Part shown: piece after piece, positions 24,470 to 40,120 of the stretch
How the letters are laid out: each line of letters starts with the position of its first letter
How positions within the stretch are numbered: position 1 is the stretch's first letter
NCBI GenBank assembly: GCA_963799285.1
Contig: CAWCWK010000004.1
Coordinates: 270,309-334,308, forward strand
Length of the DNA: 64,000 bases
Direction: 5' to 3'
Source of the DNA: an uncultured Alphaproteobacteria bacterium
GTDB taxonomy: Bacteria; Pseudomonadota; Alphaproteobacteria; Rhizobiales; CAWCWK01
Notes under the pieces: generated by a model
Databases searched by the model: none
What the model was told of the DNA's origin: nothing
What the model saw: the letters and a program-made list of their open reading frames with translations, nothing else
Translations under genes and position numbers: made by a program

Positions 24470-24493
24470 ATATCGTTCGTACACAAACGATAT
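24470..24493. promoter_or_regulatory. Operator-like palindrome ATATCGTT-CGTACACA-AACGATAT upstream of fpr
   Basis: Perfect 8-bp arms were read directly. It lies 64-87 nt upstream of the fpr start. It shares the TCGTT-N8-AACGA core with sites at 29393, 39286 and 40097. Confidence 0.55.
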
Positions 24494-24654
24494 GTCAGAT
24501 CTCGTTCCGGCGTCAAGGTCCGCGCTGCGTCTATCGGGGCCCGAGGGCCGAGCACACGTCCGGCGTCCGCCTTGACCGGCAATGTTCGGAACGTCGTTTC
24601 ATACGGTCGTGCTATCGCGCGCCGGGCTGTGTCAGGCGGCAGCTCGGCGAAGCA

Positions 24655-25350
24655 TCAGACGCCGAGATAGGTATGGATCTTGCCGTGGTCGGCCCGCAGG
24701 GCCGCGGCCGACAGGGTCTCGAGGTTTCGGCCGTTCTCGATGAAGACCGCCTGGTCGGCGACCGCCAGGATCGCGTCGACCCGCTGCTCGACGAGGACGA
24801 CGGCCAGCCCTTCCTCCCGCATGCGCGTGATGACATCGCGAATGAGGGCGATCATCGAGGGCTGCAGGCCTTCGGTCGGCTCATCGAGGAGAAGGACCTT
24901 CGGCTCCAGGCAGAGCGCACGGGCCATGGCCAGCATCTGCTGCTCGCCGCCGGACAGCGTGCTCGCCTGCTGGTCGAGCCGCTCGCCTAGGCGCGGGAAC
25001 ATCTCCAGCACGCGGTCGCGGACATGGGCTCCGGAGCGGCAGGCCAGAAGGCCCATCTCGATATTTTCGTCGACGGAGAGCTCAGGGAAGAGGCGGCGCC
25101 CTTGCGGGACGTAGCCGACGCGGCGCTTTGGCACCTCGTGGGCGGGAAGGCGGCCGATATCCTCGCCGTCGAGCGCGATCGTGCCGCCCTGGAGGGGTAG
25201 AAGCCCCATGATCGCGCGCATGGTGGTCGTCTTGCCGGCGCCGTTGCGGCCCAGGAGGCAGGTGATCTGGCCGGGCCTCGCCTCCAGGCTGACGCCGAAA
25301 AGGACCTTCACCTTGCCGTAGGCGACGTGGATGTCATCAAGCTGGAGCAT
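24655..25350 (-). CDS. livF: Branched-chain-amino-acid-type (HAAT family) ABC transporter ATP-binding protein, LivF-like
   Basis: LLGRNGAGKTTT, LSGGEQQMLAMARAL and LLLDEPTEGL. Length is 231 aa. Confidence 0.85.
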   Translation of the reverse strand: MLQLDDIHVAYGKVKVLFGVSLEARPGQITCLLGRNGAGKTTTMRAIMGLLPLQGGTIALDGEDIGRLPAHEVPKRRVGYVPQGRRLFPELSVDENIEMGLLACRSGAHVRDRVLEMFPRLGERLDQQASTLSGGEQQMLAMARALCLEPKVLLLDEPTEGLQPSMIALIRDVITRMREEGLAVVLVEQRVDAILAVADQAVFIENGRNLETLSAAALRADHGKIHTYLGV

Positions 25351-26089
25351 CGACGGCCTCCACGCTCGTGCCGAGATAGGCGGCCTGAACGGCCGGGTTG
25401 TCCTGCACCTCGACCGGCGTTCCGCTGGCCAGGATCTCGCCGAAATTAAGCACCGTGATGCGCTCGGCCGTGCGCATGACGACGTCCATGTTGTGTTCGA
25501 TGAGGAGGATGGTGGTCTTGCCCGTCAGGTCTTTGATGAGGCGGACGAACTCGGTGACTTCCGCTTCGGCCAGCCCTTGTGTCGGTTCGTCGAGGATGAA
25601 GAGCTTGGGGTCCTGCGCCAGCCCCATCGCGATCTCGAGCACGCGCTGGTGTCCGTAGGAGAGATCGCCGGCGAGCTGGGCGGCGCGGTCGGCGATCCCG
25701 ACGCGGGTCAGCACCTCATCGACCTTGGCTGTCACGCCCGCCTCGCCGCGCGTCCCGTCGCGGCGGACCGCGAGCGCGACGTTCTCGTGCACCGTCAGGT
25801 TGGCGAAGACCGACGTGATCTGAAAGGTGTAGGCGATGCCGAGGCCGATGCGCTTATGCGCCGGCATGGCACTGATGTCCCGGCCCTTGAAGAGGACGGT
25901 GCCGCGGGTCGCCGTAATGCGCCCGCAGAGCATGCCGACGAAGGTCGACTTGCCGGCGCCGTTGGGGCCGATGAGCGCCATCGTCTGCCCCTCGGGTAGA
26001 ATGAAGTCGATATCGGTGTTGGCCTTGATGCCGCCGAATGTCTTGGTCAGCCCCCGCGTCTCCAGGATCGGCGCCGCGTTCGCGCTCAT
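25337..26089 (-). CDS. livG: HAAT-family ABC transporter ATP-binding protein, LivG-like
   Basis: ATG at 26089 forms an ATGA overlap with the livM stop. Motifs: LTKTFGGIKA, IGPNGAGKST, LSYGHQRVLEIAMGL and LILDEPTQGL. Confidence 0.85.
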   Translation of the reverse strand: MSANAAPILETRGLTKTFGGIKANTDIDFILPEGQTMALIGPNGAGKSTFVGMLCGRITATRGTVLFKGRDISAMPAHKRIGLGIAYTFQITSVFANLTVHENVALAVRRDGTRGEAGVTAKVDEVLTRVGIADRAAQLAGDLSYGHQRVLEIAMGLAQDPKLFILDEPTQGLAEAEVTEFVRLIKDLTGKTTILLIEHNMDVVMRTAERITVLNFGEILASGTPVEVQDNPAVQAAYLGTSVEAVDAPA

Positions 26090-27002
26090 GGCAGCCACCT
26101 CATCGCCTTCTGGCGCAGCACGCCGGCCAGCCCATGCGGGGCGAAGAGCGTCAGGAGGACGAGGGCGATGCCGGCGATGAACATGTAGGCGTCGGTCACG
26201 GTCGAGGACAAATCGATCAGATAGAACATGAAGGCGACGCCAATGAGCGGGCCGATCGTCGTGCCGGCGCCGCCGAGGAGCACCCAGAGAAGGGGAAAGA
26301 TCGAATATTGGACGGTCGCGAAGGTGGCTCCGACATAGCCGAAGAGGAGTGCATAGCCGGCGCCCGCACAGCCCGACAGCGTGCCGGAGATGAGGATGGC
26401 CGACAGTTTCAGCCTATAAGTGTCGTAGCCAAGCATCCGCGCGCGCTCCTCGTTCTCGCGGATGGCGACCAGGGCGCGGCCGAGCCGCGATTTTACGAGG
26501 ATGGCCGAGCCGAGGAAGGCGGAGGAGAAGAAGACCCAGGCGGCCCAGTAGCGCGACTGCTCGCCCGAGACATCGATGCCGAAGAGCGAGCGCGCCGTCT
26601 GCTCGACCACGAAGCCTTCATCGCCGCGCGTCCAGGCGCCGAAATAGAGCGCGGCGAGATAGCCGGCCTGCGCGAACATGAGCGTCACGATCATGAAGGC
26701 GACCTCGCGCGTCCGCAGCGCGAGAAAGCCGATGGCGAGCGAGACGAGCAGGGCGATGAGCGCACCCATGCAGGAGCGCGAGGCCGGTCGGCACACCGCC
26801 ATGCTCGACCGCGAGACCGAAGCCGTACATGCCGGCCGCAAAGAAGAGCGCGTGGCCGAGGCTCAGAGAGGCCCGTGTAGCCGAAGAGCACGTTGTAGCC
26901 GATCGCGTAGACCGCCAGCACCATGATGCGCGCGAGGTTGCCGACATGATAGGCGGGCAGCACGAAGAAGAGGAGCGCGAGGAGCGGCGATGACACCGGC
27001 AT
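26086..27002 (-). pseudogene. livM: HAAT-family permease (LivM-like) split over three reading frames by two frameshifts
   Basis: Frame 1 gives MPVSSPLLALLFFVLPAYHVGNLARIMVLAVYAIGYNVLFGYTGL. Frame 2, from ~26868, gives SLSLGHALFFAAGMYGFGLAVEHGGVPTGLALL. Frame 3, from ~26771, gives MGALIALLVSLAIGFLALRTREVAFMIVTLMFAQAGY... to the stop at 26086. Each junction looks like a 1-nt insertion (a CTCTCT run; CTGcATG). Confidence 0.75.
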
Positions 27003-27029
27003 GGAAGACGTAGGATTTCTGTGCGTCGG

Positions 27030-27956
27030 TCATGACAGGCGCTTCCCCATCAGCCCCTGCGGGCGGAAGACGAGCACCATGGCGACGGCGAGCGTCGCGA
27101 TGATCTTGGCCAGCGTCGGCGAGAAGAAGACCGACACGATACCGTCCGTCATGCCGATGAGGATGGCCGCAATGACCGTGCCGGGCAGGCTGCCGAGCCC
27201 GCCGATGATCACGACGATGAACGAAAGGAGCAGCGGATCGTGCCCCATCAGGTAATGCGCCTGCTGGACCGGCACGACGAGCACGGCCCCGATGGCGGCC
27301 AGCGCCGCGCCAAGGCCGAAGACGTAGGCGAAGACCTTGTCGACCGGCACGCCGAAGGCCCGCGACATCTCGCGGTCCTGCTGTGTGGCGCGCATGACGA
27401 GGCCGAATGTGGTGCGCGTCATCAAGAGCCAGATGCCGGCCAGGATGGCGGCTGCGGCGGCGATGATGAAGAGCTTGTAGCTCGTGATGCTGAGCCCCCA
27501 GGGGAAGAAGACCTCCACCCCCTCCTCGCCGAACTCGAGCCAAGGGAGCGCGATCCGCTCGTTAAAGGGCGGCTCGACCGGGCGCGCATCGGGCCCGAAG
27601 GTCATGAGGGTCGCCTGCTGGATGATGTAGAGAAGGCCGATCGTCGCGACGATCGTGCGCTCGGGATTATACGCGATCCGCTTCAGGATCACCCGGTCGG
27701 CGGCCGCCGCCAGCGCGCCAACGAGCAGCGGCGCGATCAGGATCGCGGCGACGAAGCCGAGCGCGGGATGCGCGCCGATGGCGGTCGCGATCCACCAGGC
27801 GAGCACCGCGCCCAGCATGAAGAATTCGCCGTGGGCGACGTTCACGACGCGCATCACGCCGAAGACGATGGAGAGGCCCATCGCCGTCAGCGCGAGAACC
27901 GCGGCCGTGACGGCGCCCTCCAAGGACGCCAGGAGTAGGTGAGGTCCGAATTCCAC
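27030..27956 (-). CDS. livH: HAAT-family permease, LivH-like
   Basis: AVLALTAMGLSIVFGVMRVVNVAHGEFFMLGA.... It is 308 aa and polytopic. Confidence 0.85.
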   Translation of the reverse strand: MEFGPHLLLASLEGAVTAAVLALTAMGLSIVFGVMRVVNVAHGEFFMLGAVLAWWIATAIGAHPALGFVAAILIAPLLVGALAAAADRVILKRIAYNPERTIVATIGLLYIIQQATLMTFGPDARPVEPPFNERIALPWLEFGEEGVEVFFPWGLSITSYKLFIIAAAAAILAGIWLLMTRTTFGLVMRATQQDREMSRAFGVPVDKVFAYVFGLGAALAAIGAVLVVPVQQAHYLMGHDPLLLSFIVVIIGGLGSLPGTVIAAILIGMTDGIVSVFFSPTLAKIIATLAVAMVLVFRPQGLMGKRLS

Positions 27957-27967
27957 GGGGCGGCCGC

Positions 27968-28005
27968 GCTCGCTTGAGGGCGAGCCCGGACCCAGGTGTT
28001 CCGGG
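27968..28005 (-). other. Two adjacent intercistronic hairpins between the binding-protein gene and livH
   Basis: GCTCGC-N6-GCGAGC (27968-27985) and CCCGGA-N9-TCCGGG (27985-28005) were read directly. No U-tract follows. Confidence 0.3.
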
Positions 28006-28040
28006 CGTCGCGTTTCAGTTTCGGTTCGGGAAAAGCGCGC

Positions 28041-29345
28041 CTAGAAGGACTGGGTCGTGTAGTCCACCTCGTCCGGATAGAGGGTGTCCTCGATCGAGGT
28101 CTGATGGACACGAACCATGCGACCGTTCTCGACACGCGAAATGTTCTGCTTGCCGAAGACCTGGTGGGTCTTGCCGTTGAAGATCTTCGCGCCCTGCGGG
28201 TGATCGTCCGACAGCGGAATGTCGGAGATCGCCTCGACGGCCTCGATGAGGCCCGTGCGATCGTCGGGGCCCTGGTAGCCGGCGGCCTCCATGCCCTGCT
28301 TGATGATCGCCAGCGTCTCCCAGACGCCGAACATGTGGGCGTAGGTCGACACGTCGCGCGGATCGTCGAGCGAGGCGCCGGTATCGTCGACGCCCACCGC
28401 GGCGCGGTAGGCCGCCTCGTGCGCCGTCTGGTCGGCCTGCGCGGCGCGGCACATGCCCTCCCACATGTAGGACCCCTCGAGGAATTCCAGACCGGGGCTC
28501 GACAGATCGACCGCCTCCAGGCTGTCGACGAAGCCGAAGAGGGCCGGGCCCGCGCCGCCGAAGAACTCGCCCATCTCGCGCACGAAGGTCAGGACGGCCG
28601 GACCGACCATGACGTGATAGACGACTTCGGTGTCGCGCGGGATACGCGGGAAATAGCGCGTGAAAGAGGTCTCGGTCGGCGGCACGGCAATCATCTCGAG
28701 CACCTCGCCGCCTTGCGCCTTGATGGCTTCGGAGAAGAAGTCGCGGTGATCGTGGCCGAACGCGAAGTCCGGGTAGATCATCGTGACCTTTTTGCCGACA
28801 TTGTTCGCGACGTAGGGCGCCATCGAGATGACCTGGCTCTTCACGTCCGTGATGCCGGGCTGCAACGTGTAGCGGTTGAGCATGCCGGACGCGACGTGGT
28901 GGCCCTCGGAGACGACGAAATAGGGCATCTTCAGCTCGCCCGCACGCGGCGAGGAGCCAATGACGACGTGGCTGAAGAGGGGGCCGAACACGGCATCGCA
29001 ATTGTGCAGCGTGGCGAAGCGCTCGAGCACCTCGGCGCCGCGGCGCGGATCGGTGCCGTCGTCCTCGGCGATCATCTCGACCTCGCGGCCGTTGATGCCG
29101 CCGGCCTCGTTCATGCGGGCGATGGCAGCGGTGGCGACCCGCTCGTACCAGCGCCCATAGGCCGAGCCGATGCCCGTGCGATGAACCTGGAAACCGAGCC
29201 GGATCGGCCCGCTCGATTGCGCGTGGGCCATGCGGGCCCAGCCCGGCATGAGACCGGTCGTGCCGGCGGCGCCCGCCGCGGCACCAAGCCCGACAAGCGC
29301 GGAGCGGCGCGTCAGGGCGGATTTCGGCGTCTTCGTATCCGTCAT
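28041..29345 (-). CDS. LivK-type (type I periplasmic binding fold) substrate-binding protein with Tat-like signal
   Basis: ATG at 29345 is preceded by GAGGGGAG. The signal is TRRSALVGLGAAAGAAG. PIRLGFQVHRTGIGSAYG...INGREVEMIAEDDGTDP fits the Leu/Ile/Val-binding family pattern. The ligand is unknown. Confidence 0.8.
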   Translation of the reverse strand: MTDTKTPKSALTRRSALVGLGAAAGAAGTTGLMPGWARMAHAQSSGPIRLGFQVHRTGIGSAYGRWYERVATAAIARMNEAGGINGREVEMIAEDDGTDPRRGAEVLERFATLHNCDAVFGPLFSHVVIGSSPRAGELKMPYFVVSEGHHVASGMLNRYTLQPGITDVKSQVISMAPYVANNVGKKVTMIYPDFAFGHDHRDFFSEAIKAQGGEVLEMIAVPPTETSFTRYFPRIPRDTEVVYHVMVGPAVLTFVREMGEFFGGAGPALFGFVDSLEAVDLSSPGLEFLEGSYMWEGMCRAAQADQTAHEAAYRAAVGVDDTGASLDDPRDVSTYAHMFGVWETLAIIKQGMEAAGYQGPDDRTGLIEAVEAISDIPLSDDHPQGAKIFNGKTHQVFGKQNISRVENGRMVRVHQTSIEDTLYPDEVDYTTQSF

Positions 29346-29392: not shown

Positions 29393-29416
29393 ATAGTGTT
29401 CGCATACAAACGATTT
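29393..29416. promoter_or_regulatory. Operator-like site ATAGTGTTCGCATACAAACGATTT upstream of the Liv-type operon
   Basis: It matches the fpr site at 19 of 24 positions (22/27 including the following GTC). It lies 48-71 nt upstream of the binding-protein start. Confidence 0.5.
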
Positions 29417-29427
29417 GTCCAGCCTCT

Positions 29428-30840
29428 TTAGGCGCCACGCGGCGCGGCCAAGAGCCAGAGGCCAAAAAGCGTGTAGCAAATCATGAAGCCAGCGAGCGGT
29501 ATCTGAGACACGACGGCCCGTTCGCGATCACCGGCGAGGCGCAGCGCGACGTGGTGCGAGACGAGGACGGACAGCACGTGGCCGCCCACGACGAGCGCCG
29601 CTTGGGTCAGCCAGATTGCGCGCACGCTGTCGGCCGTGTTGAGAAAGCCGGTCGTCACCCGCGTTTCGCCAAGGCCGAAGAGGTTGGCACCCGTCGCGAG
29701 CGGATCGCCGATCGCGGCCAGGAGATACTGGCCGTCGACGAGGAAAGCGACGAGGAAATGCGAGGTGTGATAGCCGACCGCGATTGGCAGGACCGCCGGA
29801 GCGAGACCGCGAAAGAGGGATACGAAGCCGATATGCTCGGCGGGCGGCCGCCCCCGATCGGCCAGCCGCGCGCCCAGCCAGACGATGCCGGCGAAGGCGA
29901 GCGGCACGAGAATGCAGGCAGCGGCCAGTCCCCATAGCGACGACGCCAGTACGGCGCTACGGCCGGGAAATTCGAGCGGGTTCACGTCGATCCGCGCCAA
30001 CCACCAGAACGTCTCCTTCAACCCGTCAAAGCTGCCGCCGGCGAGGATGACGAGGGCGAAAACGCCAGCGCTCGCCGGCATCAGATCGTCGCGCGTCAGC
30101 CCCCAGCCCGGGCAGCCGATGGCGGGGCGTGGCGCGGGGTGGATGATCGCCGTCCGACCGAGAAGCGCGAAGAGGACCGAGAAGGCCTCGACCTGCGACA
30201 GCCAGGCCCGATCGCCGACGAGCGCCATGCCGGCGAAGGTGAAGAGGGCGTAGGCGAGCACTATCATCGCCAGCCGATCGGGATCGGCGGGTGCCGGATC
30301 GGCGATGTGGAAGGCCGAAAAGGCGATGAAGACGAGAAGCGCCGGCCAGACCCCTACACACGCCGGCATCGATAAAGGCGGCGCGCCGGCCAGCCTCAGG
30401 ATCGCCAGCCGATAAGGCCCGACCCAGGGGTTGATGAAGACCCAGGCGTTGCCAAAGAGGCCGACCACCGAGAAGAAGATGATCCAGAAGCCCGTCCAGA
30501 ACACAAGCGGCAGCGCGTTCGTCAAGGGATCGCGCGGGCCGGTGATGCCGGCCCAGACGAGGAAGACCCAGAAGGCGAAGGCCAGCAGGCTCGTTGCCGT
30601 CGTCAGGGCTCGGGGCGATGTCGGGACGGGAAGCGTTGCGGCCGCGAAGAGTTGCGTCGTCGCGTGCGTCGGCGCGGCCGAGATGAGCAGGATCGAGGCC
30701 AGCACCGAGAGGCAACCGCCGACGATGTAGTGCCCCGTCGGCAAGAGCAGCACGAAGGCCTGCTCGGAGACATGTGCCGCCGCCGGCGCGGCCAGTAATC
30801 CCATGCCTAGGATTGCGAGCGCTATCCCCCATACGCGCAT
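29428..30840 (-). CDS. Polytopic inner-membrane protein of unknown function with cleavable-looking signal peptide
   Basis: ATG at 30840 is preceded by AAGGAG (7-nt spacer). The N-terminus is MRVWGIALAILGMGLLAAPAAA/HVSEQAFVLLLPTGHY. About 12 hydrophobic segments follow. I do not recognise a family. Confidence 0.6.
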   Translation of the reverse strand: MRVWGIALAILGMGLLAAPAAAHVSEQAFVLLLPTGHYIVGGCLSVLASILLISAAPTHATTQLFAAATLPVPTSPRALTTATSLLAFAFWVFLVWAGITGPRDPLTNALPLVFWTGFWIIFFSVVGLFGNAWVFINPWVGPYRLAILRLAGAPPLSMPACVGVWPALLVFIAFSAFHIADPAPADPDRLAMIVLAYALFTFAGMALVGDRAWLSQVEAFSVLFALLGRTAIIHPAPRPAIGCPGWGLTRDDLMPASAGVFALVILAGGSFDGLKETFWWLARIDVNPLEFPGRSAVLASSLWGLAAACILVPLAFAGIVWLGARLADRGRPPAEHIGFVSLFRGLAPAVLPIAVGYHTSHFLVAFLVDGQYLLAAIGDPLATGANLFGLGETRVTTGFLNTADSVRAIWLTQAALVVGGHVLSVLVSHHVALRLAGDRERAVVSQIPLAGFMICYTLFGLWLLAAPRGA

Positions 30841-30922
30841 CGCCGCGCTCCTTCGCTGGAACCGTCCCCAAATCATGTTAGTGTGCTAGCGATCTTTTGA
30901 GAAGCGAAGAGGCCGACCACCG

Positions 30923-31705
30923 ATGCTCCGCTCCTTCCTGTTCGTCGCGCTCTGCCTCGTCGCCGGGCTTCTGGCCTGGCAGTTCCTTGCCGCGGAGGAA
31001 GAGCCGGTGGCGCTCGGCAATGCGCGGGCCGAGGTCGCGATGACGGGCGATGCGCTGCACGTCTTTGTCGATGTGACGAACCCGGCCGGGCCGGACCGCC
31101 TCGTGGGCGCGTCCTCCCCCGAAGCCCGTTCGGCCGTCATCGTCTCGCGGGCCGGCACGGAAGCGTTGCCGATTCCGGCCGGAAGCACCCCCCAGCTGTC
31201 TGCCGATGGCGCCTATCTGCGGCTGGAAGGCGTAGAGGGCGCTTTGGAGGAGGGGCGGCTGGTGCCGATCGCACTTACCTTCGAGCGCTCAGGCACGCTC
31301 TCTACCCAGGCCCTTGTCGGCGCACCGGCCGATCCGCATGCCATGCTCCGCGCGATGGGCATGATGACGGCGATGGTTGGCCCGCCGCTCGCGGACGTTC
31401 CGCCGACGCTCGCGATCGTCGTCACACCGGCCGAAGACGGTGGCTGGGCGGTCGCGCTGACGACCGGAAATTTCGTTTTCGACCCCGAAGTCGAGAAGCC
31501 CGCGCACGTCGCCGGTCACGGGCATGGCCATCTCTACCTCGACGGCTTGAAGCTCCAGCGCCTCTACGGCGCGACCGCCCGCATCGGTGCGCTGGCGCCG
31601 GGCGACTATACGGTGCTGGTCTCGCTCAATACCAATACGCACGAGGTCTATCTGGGATCGGACGGGCCGGTCATGGCCGAGGCCACGATCACCGTACGCG
31701 ACTAA
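30923..31705 (+). CDS. Periplasmic two-domain protein: PCu(A)C/DUF461-like N-domain plus His-rich C-domain
   Basis: It has a signal anchor (MLRSFLFVALCLVAGLLAW). ALHVFVDVTNPAGPDRLVGASSP...IPAGSTPQLSADGAYLRLEGV..ALEEGRLVPIALTFERSG resembles the PCuAC fold pattern. The C-domain carries HVAGHGHGHLYLDG. Confidence 0.5.
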   Translation: MLRSFLFVALCLVAGLLAWQFLAAEEEPVALGNARAEVAMTGDALHVFVDVTNPAGPDRLVGASSPEARSAVIVSRAGTEALPIPAGSTPQLSADGAYLRLEGVEGALEEGRLVPIALTFERSGTLSTQALVGAPADPHAMLRAMGMMTAMVGPPLADVPPTLAIVVTPAEDGGWAVALTTGNFVFDPEVEKPAHVAGHGHGHLYLDGLKLQRLYGATARIGALAPGDYTVLVSLNTNTHEVYLGSDGPVMAEATITVRD

Positions 31706-32031
31706 GGCGCCGGCTCGAAGACGTGCGCCACCTCGTAGAGAACGGGGGCGAAGCTCTTGCTCATTTCGGTCAGACGGCGGTTGACGTCCTGCATCTGATC
31801 CGAGCGCAGGACGGCGAGGAAAGCGTCGCGGCTCCCCCATTGCGAATAGCTGGCCACACGCGTCCTGGCGTCGTTGACGTGGATCGCGGCGCCGACGAAG
31901 CCCGGCTGATGCGTGATGAAGCCCTCGTAGGTCTCCGAGAGCAGCGCCACGATCGGCTCGCACGAGCCGGAGGGAACCTCGTAGGTCAGGATCACCGTCT
32001 GGACGTCGGACGGCTGCGTGATCTGGACCAT
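31702..32031 (-). CDS. Antibiotic-biosynthesis-monooxygenase (ABM, ferredoxin-like fold) domain protein
   Basis: ATG at 32031 is preceded by GGGAGG. The 109-aa sequence is MVQITQPSDVQTVILTYEVPSG...FITHQPGFVGAAIHVNDARTRVASYSQWGSRDAFLAVL. Confidence 0.6.
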   Translation of the reverse strand: MVQITQPSDVQTVILTYEVPSGSCEPIVALLSETYEGFITHQPGFVGAAIHVNDARTRVASYSQWGSRDAFLAVLRSDQMQDVNRRLTEMSKSFAPVLYEVAHVFEPAP

Positions 32032-32124
32032 GGCTCGGCCTCCCTCGTCGGCTCGTATTGGTATGCGTCTTGGCGCGCGTGTCGCCAGCATGCGCCGGGT
32101 TCGGCCGAGCGTCTACCGGAGCCG

Positions 32125-32709
32125 CTAGCGCAGCCCGTCTTTCCCTTCGGCCTCTTCGTGTGTCAGCCCGCCCACGCGTGGCAGCGGTCGACCACTGTCC
32201 GTAACGGCGATGGCGACGAGGATTTCGTTGGGACGCGGCGCATCGTTCAGCCTGATCTCGACGCCGTCGAAATGGGAGCGGACATAGGCCGCATCCTTGT
32301 GGCCGAGCGGAATGTCGATGTCCTGTCCGAGCCCGCCGCGCTTCTTCGACGAAGGCACGAGGGCCGCGCCCTTCTCGACCGCCTTGCGGAGCGGCGCTCC
32401 CATCTTCGGGTGCAGAAGGGCCGCGGCATGCTCCAGTTCGCCATTCTCTCCGACCATGGCGGCCTTGCCGTAGCTCTCCGCCTCCTCCGGACTGATACCA
32501 AGCGCTGCGACGGCGCGTTCCCCGAGAAGGCCGCCGAGCTCGGCGCCGATCTCCATGAGTTCGCTCAGGTCCTCGACATAGGTGCCCGCAAACGGGTTCT
32601 CGATGACGGCGGCGGCGATGACCTTGCGGGTGGGCGGCGAGATGGTCCGTCCGCCCTCCTTCCGGGTCTCCTCGACCCAGGTCACGAGCTTTCTGATAGC
32701 GGCGCTCAT
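32125..32709 (-). CDS. Amino-acid-synthesis family protein (AA_synth / DUF1185), paralogue B
   Basis: ENPFAGTYVEDLSELMEIGAELGGLL...YGKAAMVGENGELEHAAALLHPKMG...VPSSKKRGGLGQDIDIPLGHKDAAYVRSHFDGVEIRLNDAPRPNEILV. The start overlaps the upstream paralogue's stop by 4 nt. Confidence 0.75.
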   Translation of the reverse strand: MSAAIRKLVTWVEETRKEGGRTISPPTRKVIAAAVIENPFAGTYVEDLSELMEIGAELGGLLGERAVAALGISPEEAESYGKAAMVGENGELEHAAALLHPKMGAPLRKAVEKGAALVPSSKKRGGLGQDIDIPLGHKDAAYVRSHFDGVEIRLNDAPRPNEILVAIAVTDSGRPLPRVGGLTHEEAEGKDGLR

Positions 32710-33287
32710 TTCAGACCGTCCTCTCCTTTGATGTCAGCGGCTTCGAGGCCGCCGGAGCGCGAGTGGACGCGCGGACCCGTCGTCATGACGAGCGCGACCA
32801 GCATCTCGTCGGCGCGGGGCGCGTCGTTGAGGCCAATCTCCATCGAATCGAAATGGCTGCGCACGTAGGACGCGTTGACATGCGTGATCGGCACGTCGAT
32901 GCGGGCGCCCATGCCGCCGACCTTCTTGGCAGACGGCACGATGGCCTTCGAGCCGCCGATCACTTCGCGCATGGCGTAGCCGCCCGGCGCGTGCCAGAGC
33001 GCGCCGTGCTCCAGCTCGCCCGCCGCACCGACCAGCGAGGCCTTGCCATAGCCCTCGATTTTGTCCGCCCCGCCAAGCGCGGCGACGAGCTGCTTGGCGA
33101 GCTCCAGGCCGAGCGGGCGCAGATCATCGATGAAGCCCTGAATGTCCGGCTCGTAGCGCCCCGCGAACGGGTTGGCGATGACGGCAAAGGCCGCGCCGCG
33201 AAGCAGTGGGGTGGCCGGTGCCGGCCCTCCCTCATGGAAGATCTCCTCCACGGTGACGACGCGTTTTCGAATCTCGGGGGCAGGCAT
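32706..33287 (-). CDS. Amino-acid-synthesis family protein (AA_synth / DUF1185), paralogue A
   Basis: ANPFAGRYEPDIQGFIDDLRPLGLELA...YGKASLVGAAGELEHGALWHAPGG...VPSAKKVGGMGARIDVPITHVNASYVRSHFDSMEIGLNDAPRADEMLV. Confidence 0.75.
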   Translation of the reverse strand: MPAPEIRKRVVTVEEIFHEGGPAPATPLLRGAAFAVIANPFAGRYEPDIQGFIDDLRPLGLELAKQLVAALGGADKIEGYGKASLVGAAGELEHGALWHAPGGYAMREVIGGSKAIVPSAKKVGGMGARIDVPITHVNASYVRSHFDSMEIGLNDAPRADEMLVALVMTTGPRVHSRSGGLEAADIKGEDGLK

Positions 33288-34186
33288 CAGGCGATCTCCA
33301 GTCTGGTCTCACGGGCGGCGAGAAGCGGCCCGGCATGGGCGCTCTCGCCTTGAAGGAAGAGGGCGGCGGCGAGGATCTGCCTTTGCGCAACCATTCGCGC
33401 CGCGCGGCGCCGTCCGGCCTCGAGGGCTGCGCGCTTGTCGGCTTTGGCGAGCGGCGGCACCCGCGTCACGACGAGCCGGTCGCCGAGATCGCTATCGGGA
33501 TGCAGCGTCTCGGCCGGTGCGCGCGAGATGCCGGGATGGTCCGGCAGGTCGACGGCATTGGCGATCAGCGTCGCGGCGACGTCGGCCTCGGCCGCGCAGC
33601 GCGCGAGAACGGTCACGCTCGTCGCGATACCGAGTGAGAGGCTGCGCCCCCCTGACCCGCTCGTCGCGATGCCGCCAATGCCGGCATGGGCGTCGATCGT
33701 GATGCGGCCGAGATCGGAGCCCTCCACACCTGCCATCGCGATCGCATAGGTCGCATCGCCAGCGAGATGCAGCGCGATGTCGCCGCCATTGTTGACATAG
33801 GCCCGGCGCGGAGCGGTCACGGCCAGGATTGCCGCCAGGACCTCGTCGGAGACGGAGCCCGCCACCGCGATCATCGGCGTGAGGAACGCCGTCCCGCAGA
33901 AGGGCCGCGCTGCGCGATACATCCGACATGCGGTCGGATCGGCGGGGTCTGGCGTATCCCCGCGTAGCGGCATGCGGTGGGTCGGCAACTCGGAGACGAG
34001 TCCGTTCAAAATGCTATCGAAGCGCGTCGCGGCGGCCTCGAATGCCGCATTCCGCTCGACGTCATTCCTCGCATCGACGCCGACGATCAGATCGATCGGC
34101 CCGTGCTGGAGATGCAGGCGCCGTCCGCCGTCGAGAAGTACCGCCGCCGGCCCCTGCATCGGGGTCTGGGCTCCAGCCTTACGCAC
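33287..34186 (-). CDS. UPF0280-family protein (ApbE-like superfamily)
   Basis: LLDGGRRLHLQHGPIDLIVGV...GTAFLTPMIAVAGSVSDEVL...GIGGIATSGSGGRSLSLGIATSVTVLA. It overlaps the upstream reductase-like gene by 8 nt. An alternative start is ATG 34159. Confidence 0.65.
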   Translation of the reverse strand: MRKAGAQTPMQGPAAVLLDGGRRLHLQHGPIDLIVGVDARNDVERNAAFEAAATRFDSILNGLVSELPTHRMPLRGDTPDPADPTACRMYRAARPFCGTAFLTPMIAVAGSVSDEVLAAILAVTAPRRAYVNNGGDIALHLAGDATYAIAMAGVEGSDLGRITIDAHAGIGGIATSGSGGRSLSLGIATSVTVLARCAAEADVAATLIANAVDLPDHPGISRAPAETLHPDSDLGDRLVVTRVPPLAKADKRAALEAGRRRAARMVAQRQILAAALFLQGESAHAGPLLAARETRLEIA

Positions 34187-35687
34187 TCGCCTTCCAGCGA
34201 TAGTTGTGCTGAGCCGTCGGGTTGGCGTCGGGGTCGATCCGGTCGACCCGGCGCACGTCGGCGGGAATGATCTCCTCGATCGGCTTCACATGTTCGATAT
34301 GTCCGCCGAGCGCCACGTAGTCCGAGCGCCGCATGGTGAACTCGATCGGCGCGACGAGGGCCGGCGTCGGCACGTAGCCAAAGGCGTTGGACGGCATGTC
34401 CATCACGTCCGCCATGACGGTGATGCCGCCGCCCGGCCAGACATAGGCGTTGGCCCCGCCGCAGGAGACGTGCGTCAGCGAATCCTTGACCGACCTGGTG
34501 AGCTTGACCGGGTTCTCGGTCACGCCGGCGCGCAGCGAGCCGCCGGCTCCGCCCATGAAGAGCACCGAGCAGAGCGAGGGCTCGCAATTCTCAGCGATCC
34601 GCTCGACGGAGACCTGAAGCGTTTCCGGCAAAGGCATCGGCTGCGGCTCGAGGTTCTCATCGAGTTCGAAATAGGCGTATTGCTCGCCGGTCGTCGAGAC
34701 CATCAGCAGGCGCAGGCCTTGCCAGGCGACCTCGGGATCGGCCGGTTTCAGGATCGTCAGCGGATCGTCGACATCGGTCCCGCCCCAGCCGGTGCCGGGC
34801 TCGGCGACCTGGAAGTAGCGGCCAGGCGTCGAGCGACGCCCCTTCACGCGGATGCCGGTGGGGGGCACGTTCAGCATCTTCCCGGCCTGATGCTCGGAGA
34901 GGACGCCGGTGATGTGATCATCGACCACGATGACCTCGTCGACATGCTGGGCCCATTGCGAGGCGAACATGCCGATGGTGGCCGAGCCGCAGCCGACGCG
35001 CATCAGCTTCTCCTCGACACCGTTGACGATCGGCGCCTTGCCCGCCTGGACGACGAGGGACGCGCCCCCGTCTATTGTCAGCTCGACCGCCTCGCGATTG
35101 CAGAGCTTGAGGAGCGTGTCGCAGGTCACGCGCCCTTCCTTCTTGCTGCCGCCCGTCAAGTGCTCGACGCCGCCGAGGGAGAGCATCTTCGATCCGTACT
35201 CGCCCGTCATCACGTGACCCACCGGCTCGCCATCGACGCGCACGATCTCGCGCTCGTGGCCGATGAAACGGTCGGTGTCGATCTTCACCTTCACGCCGCA
35301 ATAGCTGAAGATGCCCTCGGTCACCACCGTGACCATGTCGGCGTCGCCGACCGTCTGGGAGACGATGAAGGGCGCCGGCTTGTAGTCCGGATAGGTCGTG
35401 CCGGCGCCGATCGCAGTCACGAAGGGCCGGCTGCCCTGCAGGATGTCGCCGTCCCAGTCGCTGCCGTCGGTCCCCTTCATGAAGGGCACGGCCCTCGCGC
35501 CGCTCTCGCGGGAATTCTCGATGATCGTCAGCGGGTCGAGCCGCACCAGCCGTCCCTCCCGGTTGCCATAGCGGTCGCAGGCGCCAGACCGGCCTTCCGC
35601 GATGTAGCAAAGGACCGGGCAGGCGTCGCAGCGGATCTTCCCAGGTGTGGCGACCTTGTCGGCGGCCGGGCTTGTCGTGTCAGACAT
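34179..35687 (-). CDS. hnr: 6-hydroxynicotinate reductase-like iron-sulfur (flavo)protein
   Basis: It is 502 aa with an N-terminal Cys cluster, KIRCDACPVLCYIAEGRSGACDRYGN. I recognise it as the proteobacterial family carried in databases under this name. Context: it sits between a Mo-hydroxylase and UPF0280/AA_synth genes, opposite an enamidase. Confidence 0.65.
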   Translation of the reverse strand: MSDTTSPAADKVATPGKIRCDACPVLCYIAEGRSGACDRYGNREGRLVRLDPLTIIENSRESGARAVPFMKGTDGSDWDGDILQGSRPFVTAIGAGTTYPDYKPAPFIVSQTVGDADMVTVVTEGIFSYCGVKVKIDTDRFIGHEREIVRVDGEPVGHVMTGEYGSKMLSLGGVEHLTGGSKKEGRVTCDTLLKLCNREAVELTIDGGASLVVQAGKAPIVNGVEEKLMRVGCGSATIGMFASQWAQHVDEVIVVDDHITGVLSEHQAGKMLNVPPTGIRVKGRRSTPGRYFQVAEPGTGWGGTDVDDPLTILKPADPEVAWQGLRLLMVSTTGEQYAYFELDENLEPQPMPLPETLQVSVERIAENCEPSLCSVLFMGGAGGSLRAGVTENPVKLTRSVKDSLTHVSCGGANAYVWPGGGITVMADVMDMPSNAFGYVPTPALVAPIEFTMRRSDYVALGGHIEHVKPIEEIIPADVRRVDRIDPDANPTAQHNYRWKASA

Positions 35688-38421
35688 CGCTCGATTCCTT
35701 GATGGCCTGGCGCAGTTTCGACGGCGTGACGGGAACCGAACGGATGCGCACGCCGCAGGCGTGGTGGATGGCGTTCAGAAGCGCGGGCGCGGTCGGAATG
35801 AGCACGTGCTCGCCGAGGCCCTTGGCACCGAATGGTCCGTGCGGGTCCGGCACCTCGACGATGAGCGTGTCGATGGGCGGGACGTCGCCGACGGTCGGAA
35901 TGAGATAGTCGTGCAGGTTCTCGGTCCGGCCCGGAAGATACTCCTCCATCAGCGCCATGCCGAGCCCTTGTGCGATGCCACCATGGACCTGGCCCTCGAC
36001 CAGCATCGGGTTGATCGCCTTGCCGACATCGTGCGCCGCGACGAAGCGGACGGGCCTGGTGGTGCCGAGCCGTGTGTCGATCTCGACCACCGCGAGTTGG
36101 GCCGCATAGCCGAACTGCGCATAGGGCGAGCCCTGTCCCTTCTCGTCGAGCGGCTTGGTCGGCGGATCGTAGGTCTCTTCGGCCCGCAGGGCGTAGCCCT
36201 CGCGGTCCGGGGTAAGGCTCGCGGTATCGATCGCATGCTCGCCCGCTACGTCCCGCACGACGATCCGACCGTCGGCAAAGGCGATCGTCGCGTCCTCGGC
36301 CGCGTTCACCTGGCGTAGGATCGTGGCGCGCAGCGCCTCGCCGCACAAGCGCGCCGCGTTGCCGGACACGAAGGTCTGGCGCGAGGCGGAGGTCTTGCCG
36401 GCATCGGGCGTCACGTCCGTATCGCCATAGACGAGCGAGACGTTGGCGACGGAGGCGCCAAGCGCGGTCGCGAAGATCTGGGCAATGACGGTGTTGGCGC
36501 CCTGGCCGATATCCATCGCGCCCTGATGAAGGACGACTTGGCCGTTCGGCCGCACGCCGGCCTTGATGGTCGAGGGGTTGGGCAGCGAGGTGTTGCCGCA
36601 GCCATACCACCCGGCGGCGAGGCCGACGCCGCGCCGCTTGGAGCCGGTCTGACTGTCGTTGAACGCTTCCGCCCTGCCGCGCTCCTCGCTCCAGGCGGGA
36701 CGCAGCGCCTCGAGGCAGGCGCGAATGCCGACGCCGCTTTCAAAGACCTGACCGCAGACAGTGGGCGTGCCGTCTTCGAGCGCATTCAGAATGCGGAACT
36801 CCAAGGGATCGAGTCCCACCGCTTCGGCCAGCTCGTCGAAGAGCGTTTCCTGCGCGATCGCCGATTGCGGCACGCCGAAGCCGCGAAACGCGCCGGCCGG
36901 CGGACAATGCGTGTGAATCCCCTTGGCCTCGGCCCGGTAGTCCGTCACGCGATAGGGGCCCGAGGCGTGGACCGGCACGCGATTGGCGACCGTCGGTCCC
37001 CAGGAGGCATACGCACCAGTGTTGAAGGCGCCGCGAAAGTCGAAGCCCGACAGCGTGCCGTCCTTCTTAGCGCCGATCGTCAGGCGGATGTCCGACGGAT
37101 GGCGCTTGGTGGTCGATTGCAGGGATTCGGTGCGGGTGTAGGTGAGCCGGACCGGCCGGCCGGTCTTCAGCGCGGCGAGCGCAAGGTAAGGCTGGACTGA
37201 GAGATCGAGCTTGGAGCCAAAGCCGCCGCCGACGCCGGTCGGCACGACGCGAATGCGGCTCGCGTCCATGCCCAGGATGATCTCGAGCGACTCCTTGTCC
37301 ATAACGGCGGCTTGGGTACAGGCGTGAACCTCGATGCGGCCACCCACGATCTCGGCAAACCCGGCCTCGGGCTCGATATAGGCGTGCTCGACGAAACCGG
37401 AGACGAACGATCCTTCGACCGTCACGTCTGCCTCCGCCAGCGCGGCCTTCGGATCGCCGCAGGTCACGAAGCCGGTGCACATCAGGTTGCCGCCCCGGCC
37501 TTCATGCAGCTGCGCGGCGCCTGCGTCTCGGGCCTCGGCGACCGTGCGGGCCGCCTCGCGCTCCGTCCAAGTGACGGGGAAGGTCTCGGGATCGAAGGTG
37601 CGGATCGCGTCCGGCTGGCCGACCACGGCCGCGACCGCCTCGCCGCGAAAGCGTGCGACGCCTTCGGCAAAGACCGGCTGGTCGGCGAAGGCGGGGATGA
37701 CGCCGAACAGGTTCTTGCCCGGAATATCCGCCGCCGTCAGAACGGCCTCCACGCCGGGGGTCTTGGCGGCCCAGGCCTCCAGATCACCAAAGGCGAAGGC
37801 GGCGTGCGGATAGGGCGAGCGCACGACCTTGATCTCGAGCGTTCCGGCCGGCGCCACGTCGTCGCCATAGCGCTCCGCGCCGGTCAGCTTGTCGGCGCCG
37901 TCGAGCCGGCGGATCGCATCGCCCGCGACGCCTTCGCCATGGAGGGCCGGCGCGACGCCGCGTACGGCGTCGATGATCTTTCGGTAGCCCGTGCAGCGGC
38001 AAAGCACGCCGCCGAGCGCATTCTCGGTCTCACGCTCGCTCGGGCTCGCATTGTCGCGCAGCAGGGCGACGGCCGATACGACCATGCCGGGCGTGCAGAT
38101 GCCGCATTGCGCGGCGCCGTGGTCCTGGAAGCGCTCGGCGAGGTCTTGCGCGATCGGATCGGCTTCGGCGAGGCCGGCGGCCGTCACGACCTCGCAATCG
38201 GCACACTGATGCGCCGGAACGAGGCAGGCGCAGGCCACGTCGCCGTCAATGAGAACGCTACAGGCGCCGCAATCGCCGGCATTGCAGCCGATCTTGACGT
38301 CGCGGGCGCCCAGCCGCTCACGCAGAGCTTCGGACAGGCGCTCGCCGGGATAGGGATCGATCTCGACCGGCCGCCCGTTGAGGCGGAACGCAATGCGCGT
38401 ATCGACGACTTTCTGGTCCAT
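35680..38421 (-). CDS. Molybdopterin hydroxylase, fused [2Fe-2S] small-subunit and MoCo large-subunit polypeptide; candidate nicotinate dehydrogenase
   Basis: ATG at 38421 shares 1 nt with the FAD-subunit stop. The N-terminus has CNAGDCGACSV and QCGICTPGMV...CRCTGY (two 2Fe-2S motifs). An aldehyde-oxidase/xanthine-dehydrogenase a/b hammerhead and MoCo-binding region follow, for 913 aa in total. Confidence 0.85.
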   Translation of the reverse strand: MDQKVVDTRIAFRLNGRPVEIDPYPGERLSEALRERLGARDVKIGCNAGDCGACSVLIDGDVACACLVPAHQCADCEVVTAAGLAEADPIAQDLAERFQDHGAAQCGICTPGMVVSAVALLRDNASPSERETENALGGVLCRCTGYRKIIDAVRGVAPALHGEGVAGDAIRRLDGADKLTGAERYGDDVAPAGTLEIKVVRSPYPHAAFAFGDLEAWAAKTPGVEAVLTAADIPGKNLFGVIPAFADQPVFAEGVARFRGEAVAAVVGQPDAIRTFDPETFPVTWTEREAARTVAEARDAGAAQLHEGRGGNLMCTGFVTCGDPKAALAEADVTVEGSFVSGFVEHAYIEPEAGFAEIVGGRIEVHACTQAAVMDKESLEIILGMDASRIRVVPTGVGGGFGSKLDLSVQPYLALAALKTGRPVRLTYTRTESLQSTTKRHPSDIRLTIGAKKDGTLSGFDFRGAFNTGAYASWGPTVANRVPVHASGPYRVTDYRAEAKGIHTHCPPAGAFRGFGVPQSAIAQETLFDELAEAVGLDPLEFRILNALEDGTPTVCGQVFESGVGIRACLEALRPAWSEERGRAEAFNDSQTGSKRRGVGLAAGWYGCGNTSLPNPSTIKAGVRPNGQVVLHQGAMDIGQGANTVIAQIFATALGASVANVSLVYGDTDVTPDAGKTSASRQTFVSGNAARLCGEALRATILRQVNAAEDATIAFADGRIVVRDVAGEHAIDTASLTPDREGYALRAEETYDPPTKPLDEKGQGSPYAQFGYAAQLAVVEIDTRLGTTRPVRFVAAHDVGKAINPMLVEGQVHGGIAQGLGMALMEEYLPGRTENLHDYLIPTVGDVPPIDTLIVEVPDPHGPFGAKGLGEHVLIPTAPALLNAIHHACGVRIRSVPVTPSKLRQAIKESSDV

Positions 38422-39266
38422 CAGACGACCTCCTCGCCACAGGCGCGCAAGACGGCGCGGCGACACAGTTCGCAGACGACGTCGAGCCGGTACGCCGCCG
38501 AGCCGCGCACGTCCGAGATCGGATCGAGCGGCGTCAGAAGCGCGGGATCCTCCAGCTGCGCATCGCGCAAGTCGGCAACCGCCATGCCCTCCAGTTGCCG
38601 CTCCAGCGCATCCAGCCGCTCGGCCACCGGAGAGCAGCTTCCGACCGCGACGCGCGCGTCCGTGATCCGGCCGTCCCGCACCGTGGCAACGGCCGCGACC
38701 ATGGCGATCGAGATGACCAGATATTTGCGGGCGCCGAGCTTTTCGAACGCACTGCCCGCATCGCCAGCGACGGATGGGATGTGAAGCGCGGAGACGAGCT
38801 CGCCGTCCTTAAGAGCCGTCTTGCGCACACCCTGGACGAACTGGCGCAGCGGCATCGTGCGGGCGCCCTCGAGGCCGCTCACCTCGACATGCGCGTCAAG
38901 CGCGAGAAGGGGCGGAACGCCATCCGCAGCCGGCGAGGCGTTGCAGATATTACCGGCAAGCGTCGCGCGGTTCTGAATTTGGGCGGAGCCGACCTGGAGG
39001 GCAGCCTGCTTCAAGGCATCGAAGGCAGGCGGCAGATCGGCCCTGACCACATCAGTCCAAGTCGTCGCCGCGCCGATACGCCAGCCGTCATCGACCCGGC
39101 GGATACCGCGCAAGCCTTCGATCCGCGTGATATCCAGCGCTCGGTGAGGGGGATGGCCGGGCGCCATGGAGGGAAAGACGTCCGTTCCCCCGGCGATCAC
39201 TTGGCCGCCGGAGACGTTGAGCGTCGTCAGCGCCTCGGCCAAACTCGTCGCGACAGTGTAGGACAA
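38421..39266 (-). CDS. FAD-binding subunit of a molybdopterin hydroxylase (CoxM/XdhB-like)
   Basis: TTG start at 39266 with GGAGAG upstream. Blocks: VIAGGTDVFPSM, IQNRATLAGNICNASPAAD and DVRGSAAYR. Confidence 0.85.
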   Translation of the reverse strand: MSYTVATSLAEALTTLNVSGGQVIAGGTDVFPSMAPGHPPHRALDITRIEGLRGIRRVDDGWRIGAATTWTDVVRADLPPAFDALKQAALQVGSAQIQNRATLAGNICNASPAADGVPPLLALDAHVEVSGLEGARTMPLRQFVQGVRKTALKDGELVSALHIPSVAGDAGSAFEKLGARKYLVISIAMVAAVATVRDGRITDARVAVGSCSPVAERLDALERQLEGMAVADLRDAQLEDPALLTPLDPISDVRGSAAYRLDVVCELCRRAVLRACGEEVV

Positions 39267-39285
39267 CGTCCGCTCTCCGCCCGCT

Positions 39286-39309
39286 AGATCATTTGCATGC
39301 TAACATTAT
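39286..39309. promoter_or_regulatory. Degenerate operator-like site AGATCATTTGCATGCTAACATTAT immediately upstream of the hydroxylase operon
   Basis: It matches the enamidase palindrome at 15 of 24 positions, including the contiguous CATGCTAAC core. It lies 20-43 nt upstream of the TTG start at 39266. Confidence 0.4.
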
Positions 39310-39405
39310 CGACACCAGACCGGGTGATGTCAACGCAAGGCTCGGGCGTCGATGCCGGTGGCCAATCCGTTCCTGCCGGCAGCCCGCCGTCAAGGGCGAG
39401 ACGGA

Positions 39406-39852
39406 CTAGCCGAGCTTGGCGAGAAGGCTGAGAAAGACCGTCTGATCCGCTGGGCTCAGTGGCGCCAGCGTCTCGCGAGTGATGGCGGCGCCTGCCGCAT
39501 AGAGCTGCCGGGCAAACTCCTGATGGCCCGGCGCGATGGAGAGCAGCGTGCGGCGCTGGTCGTTGGGATCGGCCTTGGCGGCGACCAAGCCCTTGCGCCG
39601 CAGGCGATCGACCACGCCCTTGATGGTCGCTACGTCCATCGCCGTCTGACGGCCGAGCTCGTTTTGCGAGCAATGGCCGAGTTCCACGAGCTTTGCGAGG
39701 GCCGCGAACTGCGTGGGCGTCACGTCGAGCGGGATCAGCTTCTGGAAGATCGCCGTGTGGCGCTGGGTCGCCTGGCGCAACAGGAACCCGACCTGCGTTT
39801 CGAGGACATAGGCTCTGTCCTTCGCCTCTCTCTCCTCGACTGCCAGACTCAT
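39406..39852 (-). CDS. MarR-family transcriptional regulator
   Basis: ATG at 39852 has GGAG 8 nt upstream. QVGFLLRQATQRHTAIFQKLIPLDVTPTQFAALAKLVELGHCSQNELGRQTAMDVATIKGVVDRLRRKGLV...DPNDQRRTLLSI is a winged helix-turn-helix. Confidence 0.85.
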   Translation of the reverse strand: MSLAVEEREAKDRAYVLETQVGFLLRQATQRHTAIFQKLIPLDVTPTQFAALAKLVELGHCSQNELGRQTAMDVATIKGVVDRLRRKGLVAAKADPNDQRRTLLSIAPGHQEFARQLYAAGAAITRETLAPLSPADQTVFLSLLAKLG

Positions 39853-39966
39853 CTCGTACTCCAAAGCTCGCCAGAGGCGCTGTTGAGAGGCCTTGGGGAT
39901 CTCCCAGTCATGCCACGACCATCCCTCGATGGGAAACCCGCCTTGCTCCGTCCTCACCAAGGGCAC

Positions 39967-39983
39967 GAACGAAATCGTCGTTC
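39967..39983. promoter_or_regulatory. Inverted repeat GAACGA-AATCG-TCGTTC in the marR-enamidase divergent region
   Basis: It uses the same AACGA/TCGTT words as the other sites but in everted order with a 5-nt spacer. It lies 115 nt upstream of the marR start chosen here. Confidence 0.3.
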
Positions 39984-40096
39984 AACACGCGGTTCCACCG
40001 TCGGGCAGCACATTCGGTAGCCGGCGTCGACCCGCGCCGGAGCCCGCGGCGCATAGCCGTGGTCGAACCCGGACCTTCATATTGATGCACTGCCGA

Positions 40097-40120
40097 AATT
40101 CGTTATCATGCTAACGAATT
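40097..40120. promoter_or_regulatory. Perfect 24-bp operator-like palindrome AATTCGTTA-TCATGC-TAACGAATT directly upstream of the enamidase RBS
   Basis: 9-bp perfect arms were read directly. It ends 3 nt before GGGGAGG and 18 nt before the ATG at 40139. Confidence 0.6.

Follow-up and report, generated by a model that had tools for sequence, protein, structure and literature searches.

We analysed a 64-kb stretch of contig CAWCWK010000004.1 from an uncultured alphaproteobacterium (GCA_963799285.1), hereafter called the window, which is the only part of this genome that was scanned and whose coordinates are used throughout. The window has a G+C content of 67% and carries, at positions 22421-41332, an island of nicotinate and nicotinamide catabolic genes. 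Five copies of one palindromic site of 18-20 base pairs (bp), which we call S1 to S5, front the gene units of this 19-kb island. A gene for a MarR-family regulator of 148 residues (marR, 39406..39852, minus strand, ATG at 39852) lies within it, between ena, which encodes an enamidase-like amidohydrolase, and a molybdenum hydroxylase operon.

The first site, S1 (40097..40120; core 40099-40118, TTCGTTATCATGCTAACGAA), is located in the divergent spacer between marR and ena and reads AATTCGTTA-TCATGC-TAACGAATT, with perfect 9-bp arms; 18 nucleotides (nt) separate its end from the ena ATG at 40139. S2 (24470..24493; core 24472-24491, ATCGTTCGTACACAAACGAT) precedes the unit headed by fpr, the ATG of which (24406) is 63 nt downstream, and is built as ATATCGTT-CGTACACA-AACGATAT, with perfect 8-bp arms. 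S3 (29393..29416; core 29395-29414, AGTGTTCGCATACAAACGAT), identical to S2 at 19/24 positions, follows the stop codon of a membrane-protein gene by 12 nt and stands 47 nt ahead of the livK ATG (29345). S4 (39286..39309; core 39288-39307, ATCATTTGCATGCTAACATT), which shares 15/24 positions with S1, is separated by 19-20 nt from the TTG start codon (39266) of the downstream gene for the flavin adenine dinucleotide (FAD) subunit of the hydroxylase. These four sites had been described in an initial annotation of the sequence, and their positions, arms and identities were all confirmed; the set was incomplete, as a fifth site had been missed. This site, S5 (30872..30895; core 30874-30893, CATGTTAGTGTGCTAGCGAT), occupies the 82-nt divergent spacer between the membrane-protein gene and a gene for a PCuAC-like protein, 27 nt from the start of the latter and 32 nt from the likely ATG of the former (30840).

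The unit behind S4 is a seven-gene operon (31702..39266, minus strand) in which adjacent genes overlap or abut. Its FAD subunit (38421-39266; FAD_binding_5/CO_deh_flav_C) and fused 2Fe2S/Mo subunit (35680-38466; Fer2/Fer2_2/Ald_Xan_dh_C/MoCoBD_1/2) together provide all the components of a molybdenum hydroxylase, FAD, 2Fe-2S and molybdenum cofactor, and we infer from the context that its substrate is nicotinate. The hnr gene (34179-35687) encodes a 502-residue 6-hydroxynicotinate reductase that belongs to no Pfam family. Homologues at 76-87% identity bear this name at NCBI, the closest ones (86-87% identical) coming from Roseovarius and from a Nitratireductor metagenome-assembled genome, and the basis of the name is the Eubacterium barkeri enzyme, which is 42% identical to an Hnr homologue (PMC3511419). 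Downstream of hnr, on the same strand, are the genes for a PRK04334-type protein (33287-34186), two AA_synth proteins (PF06684; 32706-33287 and 32125-32709) and an ABM protein (31702-32091). The AA_synth pair and the PRK04334-type gene (32125-34186) are conserved in 74-76 of the 80 hnr loci of other genomes described below, and their products probably belong to the "conserved proteins of unknown function" of PMC3511419. On the other side of marR, ena (40139..41332, plus strand) gives generic matches to Pfam Amidohydro_1 and Amidohydro_3, and no model of a specific enzyme was passed. Its orthologues, found in 50 cluster loci, have a median identity of 85%, and the putative name enamidase rests on context and on the literature (PMC3511419).

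The fpr gene (23585-24406, minus strand) encodes a ferredoxin-NADP reductase-like protein (NCBIfam E 5.7e-37; 127 bits, under the curated cut-off of 390). It is followed, on the same strand, by an open reading frame (23097-23798) initially labelled gcdH'. This reading frame does match acyl-CoA dehydrogenases, as a C-terminal fragment of Acyl-CoA_dh_1, and proved to be a deletion remnant only: its last 77 residues are 88% identical to the C-terminus of a 403-residue acyl-CoA dehydrogenase in the related locus L003, where the full gene comes after fpr, while about 800 nt of the middle of the gene are gone. Next comes pncA, for a nicotinamidase (22421-23056, minus strand; NCBIfam 192.7 bits, above the cut-off of 174). 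No minus-strand terminator was found between fpr and pncA, and fpr, the remnant and pncA are presumably co-transcribed. The 64-kb window lacks an fdxA gene.

S3 precedes a Liv-type ATP-binding cassette (ABC) importer (24655..29345, minus strand; Pfam Peripla_BP_6, BPD_transp_2 and ABC_tran), consisting of livK (28041-29345), livH (27030-27956), livM (~26086-26957), livG (25337-26098) and livF (24655-25350). Compared with orthologues of 314 residues, livM is split over three frames (frame -3, 26957-26868; frame -1, 26866-26801; frame -2, ~26787-26089), and the two apparent frameshifts point to a pseudogene or, alternatively, to a fault in the assembly. The two genes that diverge from S5 encode a multi-pass membrane protein of ~470 residues (Unk482; 29428..30840, minus strand), with no match in Pfam or NCBIfam and a likely ATG at 30840 after a GAAGGAG ribosome-binding site, and a PCuAC-domain protein (30923..31705, plus strand; Pfam PCuAC, E 2.9e-9). 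Beyond ena, a separate unit without an operator copy (41616-47486) comprises a GntR/FCD regulator gene (41616-42341), an ABC system with a solute-binding protein (42716-43951), an ATPase (43915-45045) and a permease (45218-46669), and an Asp/Glu/hydantoin racemase gene (46713-47486).

The shared site had initially been formulated as TCGTT-N8-AACGA. This pattern occurs exactly twice in the window, against 0.07 matches expected; with up to two mismatches allowed, its 10-base core is found at chance level (17 matches, 19.7 expected) and therefore cannot by itself justify S3 and S4. When weight matrices of the full 24-mers were built with one site left out at a time and scanned across the window, each omitted site was recovered at 19-33 bits, with a background that did not exceed 10.6 bits, S5 aside, which scored 15.6-22.6 bits in every one of these scans. 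A comparative matrix, built from sites of other genomes only, returned five matches in the window, S2 (27.4 bits), S4 (25.6), S3 (23.2), S1 (23.1) and S5 (16.7), the next best match reaching 3.7 bits. In shuffles that keep the local composition, 0.007 matches of at least 16 bits are expected, compared to the five observed. A weak match at 7177-7200, with 6.4-10.6 bits by the window-derived matrices, fell to 3.1 bits with the comparative matrix and was dismissed. We conclude that the sites form one motif family, far beyond chance, as had been proposed.

The consensus derived from 157 unique sites is TyrTTwGyATrCwAAyrA, flanked by A/T, with a nearly invariant core TT.G....C.AA. In part, this departs from the initial formulation, since the CG of TCGTT varies (C/T and G/A) and the supposed N8 spacer holds an invariant G and C around a YATR centre. 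Because the CG is variable and the spacer informative in the real consensus, S4, which had been taken for the weakest site, is among the best, second by the comparative matrix. The everted repeat GAACGA-N5-TCGTTC upstream of marR (39967-39983), which had been listed with the sites, is not part of the system: with up to one mismatch, the window contains three matches against 1.3 expected, the repeat scores -13.7 bits with the comparative matrix, and it is missing from all 14 other divergent ena-marR spacers.

Conservation of the site was assessed in loci collected around Hnr from a single genome for each species; this gave 80 loci, including flanks of at most 10 kb to either side (1.47 Mb), mostly from Rhodobacterales with a few from Hyphomicrobiales. 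At a threshold of 12 bits, the window-derived matrix gave 205 matches in the 80 loci versus 14 in shuffled sequence. These matches are spread over 69 loci, at conserved positions, and only three are inside mapped genes, all at ~13 bits or weaker. A site that scores 15 bits or more precedes ena by no more than 300 nt in 94% of 50 loci. For the FAD-subunit gene, this holds in 93% of 70 loci, with the site typically standing ~20 nt before the start. The corresponding frequencies are 67% for livK (9 loci; range 67-78%), 48% for fpr or fdxA-fpr (25 loci) and 27% for marR (62 loci; range 27-31%), compared with 0-4% for control genes internal to the operons (36-80 loci examined). The palindrome is kept at the promoters of orthologous genes in both Rhodobacterales and Rhizobiaceae; in one Methylobacterium locus, the sites are weaker.

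The arrangement of individual sites is also repeated. The S3 layout, with the site between Unk482 and livK, recurs in L016, L052, L053, L081 and L085. The membrane-protein/PCuAC pair is found beside livK in 7-8 other loci, and S5 has counterparts in L073 (25.4 bits), in L016 (12.5 bits) and in the Rhizobium locus L085 (23.2 bits), there upstream of the Unk482 homologue. L085, from a replicon of Rhizobium sp. 007 in the plasmid collection, bears sites at fpr/ena, at FAD-subunit/marR, at livK and at the membrane-protein gene. In L084, obtained from a 7.8-Mb genome by MarR-centred retrieval, sites lie upstream of ena, of fpr and of the marR/AA_synth pair. L084 and L085 come from independent retrievals, and they agree with each other. 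In many loci of relatives, a gene for a 7Fe ferredoxin (Fer4+DUF3470) is placed between the operator and fpr, ~13 nt past the operator (for example L005 15772-16131, L013 13707-14051 and L017 2819-3154). The regulon in relatives also takes in an acyl-CoA dehydrogenase and a CoA-transferase. The latter (L040 18684-19796; L044 18672-19784) is matched best by succinate-glutarate CoA-transferase, at 536 bits and thus short of the cut-off of 750, and in L040 its gene is at most ~350 nt from operator sites in a spacer that it has in common with fpr. Such an enzyme in the regulon would agree with a glutarate branch, as Azorhizobium has been reported to use a glutarate route (PMC3511419). In five Ruegeria loci (L021, L044, L045 and two more), a LysR gene (L044 5359-6366, open reading frame cluster 37) diverges from the hydroxylase operon, with a MarR-type site at its called start; this LysR may be a second control layer in Ruegeria.

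Which protein would read these operators? The MarR of the window (Pfam MarR, E 4.8e-11; MarR_2, E 1.4e-9) belongs to a set of proteins that public databases name only "MarR family transcriptional regulator". A protein identical to it was found only on a 1.7-kb contig from a read assembly. Its matches in the PDB include 2nnn (E 1e-35) and, over residues 14-147, BpsR (6pcp/6pco, E 1.6e-24), and BLASTP aligns it with Bordetella BpsR at 38% identity (E 2e-31). BpsR of Bordetella bronchiseptica is a 6-hydroxynicotinate-responsive MarR repressor of nic genes with structures 6pcp and 6pco (PMC6837509). It has been described as a homologue of NicR, the regulator with which the initial annotation drew its analogy. 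MarR orthologues, with a median identity of 54%, are encoded within 10 kb of hnr in 62/80 loci, and of the 66 loci in which strong sites occur, 58 also have a marR gene. Among the orthologues, conservation exceeds 90% at the residues of the predicted DNA-binding region. Where marR is relocated (L016, L039, L080), it is accompanied by sites, which lie directly upstream of the marR that has moved away from ena. Unbiased clustering of the plausible open reading frames of the 80 loci revealed no other conserved regulator gene. Comparative genomics strongly supports the proposal that one dimeric regulator, most likely the adjacent MarR, would link ena, the hydroxylase operon, fpr and the Liv transporter.

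The operator could instead be real and serve a different regulator, either the GntR/FCD protein encoded next to ena (41616-42341) or one encoded elsewhere in the genome. Such a regulator might account for the 8/66 motif-bearing loci in which the MarR gene is missing within 10 kb, and the Ruegeria LysR, with a site at its start, would be a protein of this kind. The GntR/FCD protein was rejected for its poor conservation, as a homologue is found in just 4/80 loci, at 29% identity. MarR, by contrast, is the sole regulator gene conserved across the loci, and the sites travel with it when it is relocated. The operators consist of two half-sites of 8-9 bp, with centres ~10 bp apart, an arrangement that suits a winged-helix dimer according to general knowledge of MarR-DNA complexes. 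We therefore consider control by a regulator other than MarR unlikely.

The position of the sites relative to predicted promoters bears on the mode of action. A sigma-70-like promoter is predicted ahead of the hydroxylase operon (39305..39333, minus strand; TTGACA-17-GATAAT, 11/12 matches), and its -10 box GATAAT (39310-39305) overlaps S4. The predicted ena promoter (40082..40109, plus strand; TTGATG-16-TATCAT) has its -10 box TATCAT (40104-40109) inside S1, and that of fpr (24487..24516, minus strand; TTGACG-18-TATCGT) has its -10 box TATCGT (24492-24487) inside S2; an alternative fpr promoter, CTGACA-18-GATATT (24498-24469), likewise overlaps S2. The overlap of the predicted -10 boxes with S1, S2 and S4 therefore corresponds to a repressor geometry. 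At S3, a weak match picked out by eye, TGGACA-17-CACTAT, would place the site in the promoter spacer.

From these data, we infer that a MarR dimer binds the five operators, with one winged-helix monomer per half-site, and most likely represses ena, the hydroxylase-hnr operon and fpr by blocking RNA polymerase in the -10/start region. As for BpsR, the signal for its release would be 6-hydroxynicotinate, the first intermediate of the pathway. The regulon would comprise ena; the operon formed by the hydroxylase genes, hnr, the PRK04334-type gene, the two AA_synth genes and the ABM gene; the PCuAC-like gene; the membrane-protein gene; the Liv importer; and fpr, the acyl-CoA dehydrogenase remnant and pncA. 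That the local MarR governs the units of the island via the five operators, likely as a repressor released by 6-hydroxynicotinate, is a reading of the sequence to which we give a probability of about 0.78.

MarR might also bind these sites as an activator or dual regulator, or respond to nicotinate, nicotinamide, tetrahydro-6-oxonicotinate or another ligand. In an alignment of 40 sequences (the window MarR, BpsR and 38 alphaproteobacterial orthologues), three of the four ligand-contact residues of BpsR, Tyr15, Arg26 and His32, are invariant in 40/40 sequences, and the fourth, His23, is replaced by Phe or Tyr in the window MarR and its orthologues. The NicR of Pseudomonas putida is without these ligand residues of BpsR (PMC6837509), and consensus promoters are not detectable at S3 or S5. 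Against this reading stand the three promoters whose predicted -10 boxes are overlapped by operators and the three invariant contact residues; moreover, the characterised homologues, BpsR and NicR, both repress and are both relieved by 6-hydroxynicotinate (PMC6837509, PMC10269826). An activator or a different inducer thus appears improbable, to about the same degree as a regulator other than MarR.

The idea that the palindromes are RNA hairpins, terminators, REP (repetitive extragenic palindromic)-like repeats or chance similarities of AT-rich intergenic DNA, to which the folding of S1 and S2 (-6.5 and -9.1 kcal/mol, better than shuffled sequence) might lend some credit, is effectively refuted by the shuffle, covariation and folding tests: S3, S4 and S5 do not fold, mirror positions vary independently, with complementarity no higher than independence would predict, GC-rich stems and T-runs are both absent, and sequence and position upstream of start codons are conserved across orders, with the excess over chance given above. 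The independence of the half-sites and the failure of S3-S5 to fold point therefore to a DNA site bound by a symmetric dimeric protein and not to a hairpin.

Several observations weigh against control of the island by a 6-hydroxynicotinate-released MarR repressor. Four of the eight motif-bearing loci that lack MarR within 10 kb are full-length loci. Conversely, L082 (10001-12087) encodes a MarR homologue, 53% identical, without the motif, the best match being 8.5 bits ~10 kb off; this gene adjoins an ena-like amidohydrolase gene amid transposase genes, and we treat its product as either a paralogue or part of a decayed locus. Since the window sites served as the seed of the comparative matrix, this matrix is not fully independent of them. 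The change of His23 to Phe/Tyr means that the inducer could differ, and the distance of 245 nt between S1 and marR makes autoregulation in the window uncertain. The scan for consensus promoters found none at S3 and S5. The livM frameshifts and the acyl-CoA dehydrogenase remnant indicate possible decay or misassembly of a part of the island. Finally, no experiments on binding, expression or transcription starts, either in this organism or with any orthologue, were found in the searchable literature.

Judged by its genes, the island encodes a reductive nicotinate pathway of the Eubacterium barkeri/Azorhizobium caulinodans type. The route would lead from nicotinate to 6-hydroxynicotinate, then to tetrahydro-6-oxonicotinate and to ring opening, and PncA would channel nicotinamide into it. 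6-Hydroxynicotinate reductase is ferredoxin-dependent (EC 1.3.7.1). Given this dependence, an operator-controlled fdxA-fpr pair would make biochemical sense, with Fpr regenerating reduced ferredoxin for the reductase. The Liv-type system is a probable nicotinate importer, and a transporter of this type was named "putative nicotinate ABC transporter" in PMC3511419. The recruitment of an importer and of fpr into nicotinate catabolism, which the initial annotation had put forward as unexpected, is supported; the importer link is less unexpected than claimed, and the fpr link has a simple rationale.

How does this system compare with known ones? BpsR resembles the window MarR by family, by direct homology, by the location of its gene inside a nicotinate-catabolic cluster and by a predicted repressor role at catabolic promoters. 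It controls, however, the aerobic 2,5-dihydroxypyridine pathway (nicC/nicX), whereas the window MarR sits with the reductive pathway (hnr, ena); BpsR has His23 where the window MarR has Phe/Tyr, and it also affects biofilm and motility genes. This likeness is drawn on the proteins and not on the operator sequences. NicR of P. putida KT2440 is, similarly, a local MarR-type repressor of several nicotinate operons (nicC, nicX; PMC6837509, PMC10269826). It belongs to a different pathway and, as noted, lacks the ligand residues of BpsR (PMC6837509), and we liken it to the window MarR by description rather than by sequence. In P. putida, a second regulator, NicS, serves the hydroxylase genes, whereas in the window the hydroxylase operon carries the same type of operator as the other units.

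Parallels in gene content are the clusters of A. caulinodans, Bradyrhizobium japonicum and Rhodopseudomonas palustris, for which E. barkeri-type nicotinate genes have been described (PMC3511419, which cites Alhapel 2006 and Kitts 1989/1992 for the nicotinate cluster). No operator or regulator is reported there. Compared with these clusters, fpr, pncA and the membrane-protein/PCuAC pair are added under the same operator in the window. No description of a regulator or operator of this cluster was found in the searchable literature, with RegPrecise and the BpsR/NicR operator papers outside the search.

The window sites have the same architecture as generic MarR operators, and they differ from them in sequence; the regulon of the window is catabolic, those of E. 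coli MarR and OhrR are concerned with stress or efflux. The operators of E. coli MarR and of OhrR-ohrA are (pseudo)palindromes of 16-20 bp that overlap the -10/-35 region; a dimer binds them, and roughly one turn of the helix lies between the centres of the two half-sites (see references in PMC6837509). By function and family, the window MarR would be a BpsR/NicR-type repressor with an ordinary local regulon. It would differ in the control of the reductive pathway, in the change of one ligand residue and in the use of a single operator type for the hydroxylase, the downstream enzymes, transport and electron supply.

For marine Rhodobacterales and rhizobia, these results define an operator at the sequence level, and a regulon, of the reductive nicotinate pathway. 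The regulon is clean and widely conserved, and specialists would find nothing surprising in its logic. With the motif, nicotinate regulons can be annotated genome-wide, and MarR and its sites represent a candidate 6-hydroxynicotinate-responsive repressor/operator pair for biosensor work. Sharing of the operator also flags uncharacterised candidates for the pathway, namely the AA_synth and PRK04334-type proteins, the membrane-protein/PCuAC pair and fdxA-fpr. A more ambitious and tentative proposal, to which we would give somewhat less than even odds, is that the operator delimits a complete aerobic reductive nicotinate pathway and thereby assigns roles to genes that had none. If so, a dedicated FdxA-Fpr couple would give low-potential electrons to 6-hydroxynicotinate reductase in aerobes, the Liv-type binding protein would be a receptor for pyridine carboxylates, and the AA_synth pair, the PRK04334-type and ABM proteins and the membrane protein with its PCuAC partner would account for missing pathway steps or for a membrane component not recognised so far.

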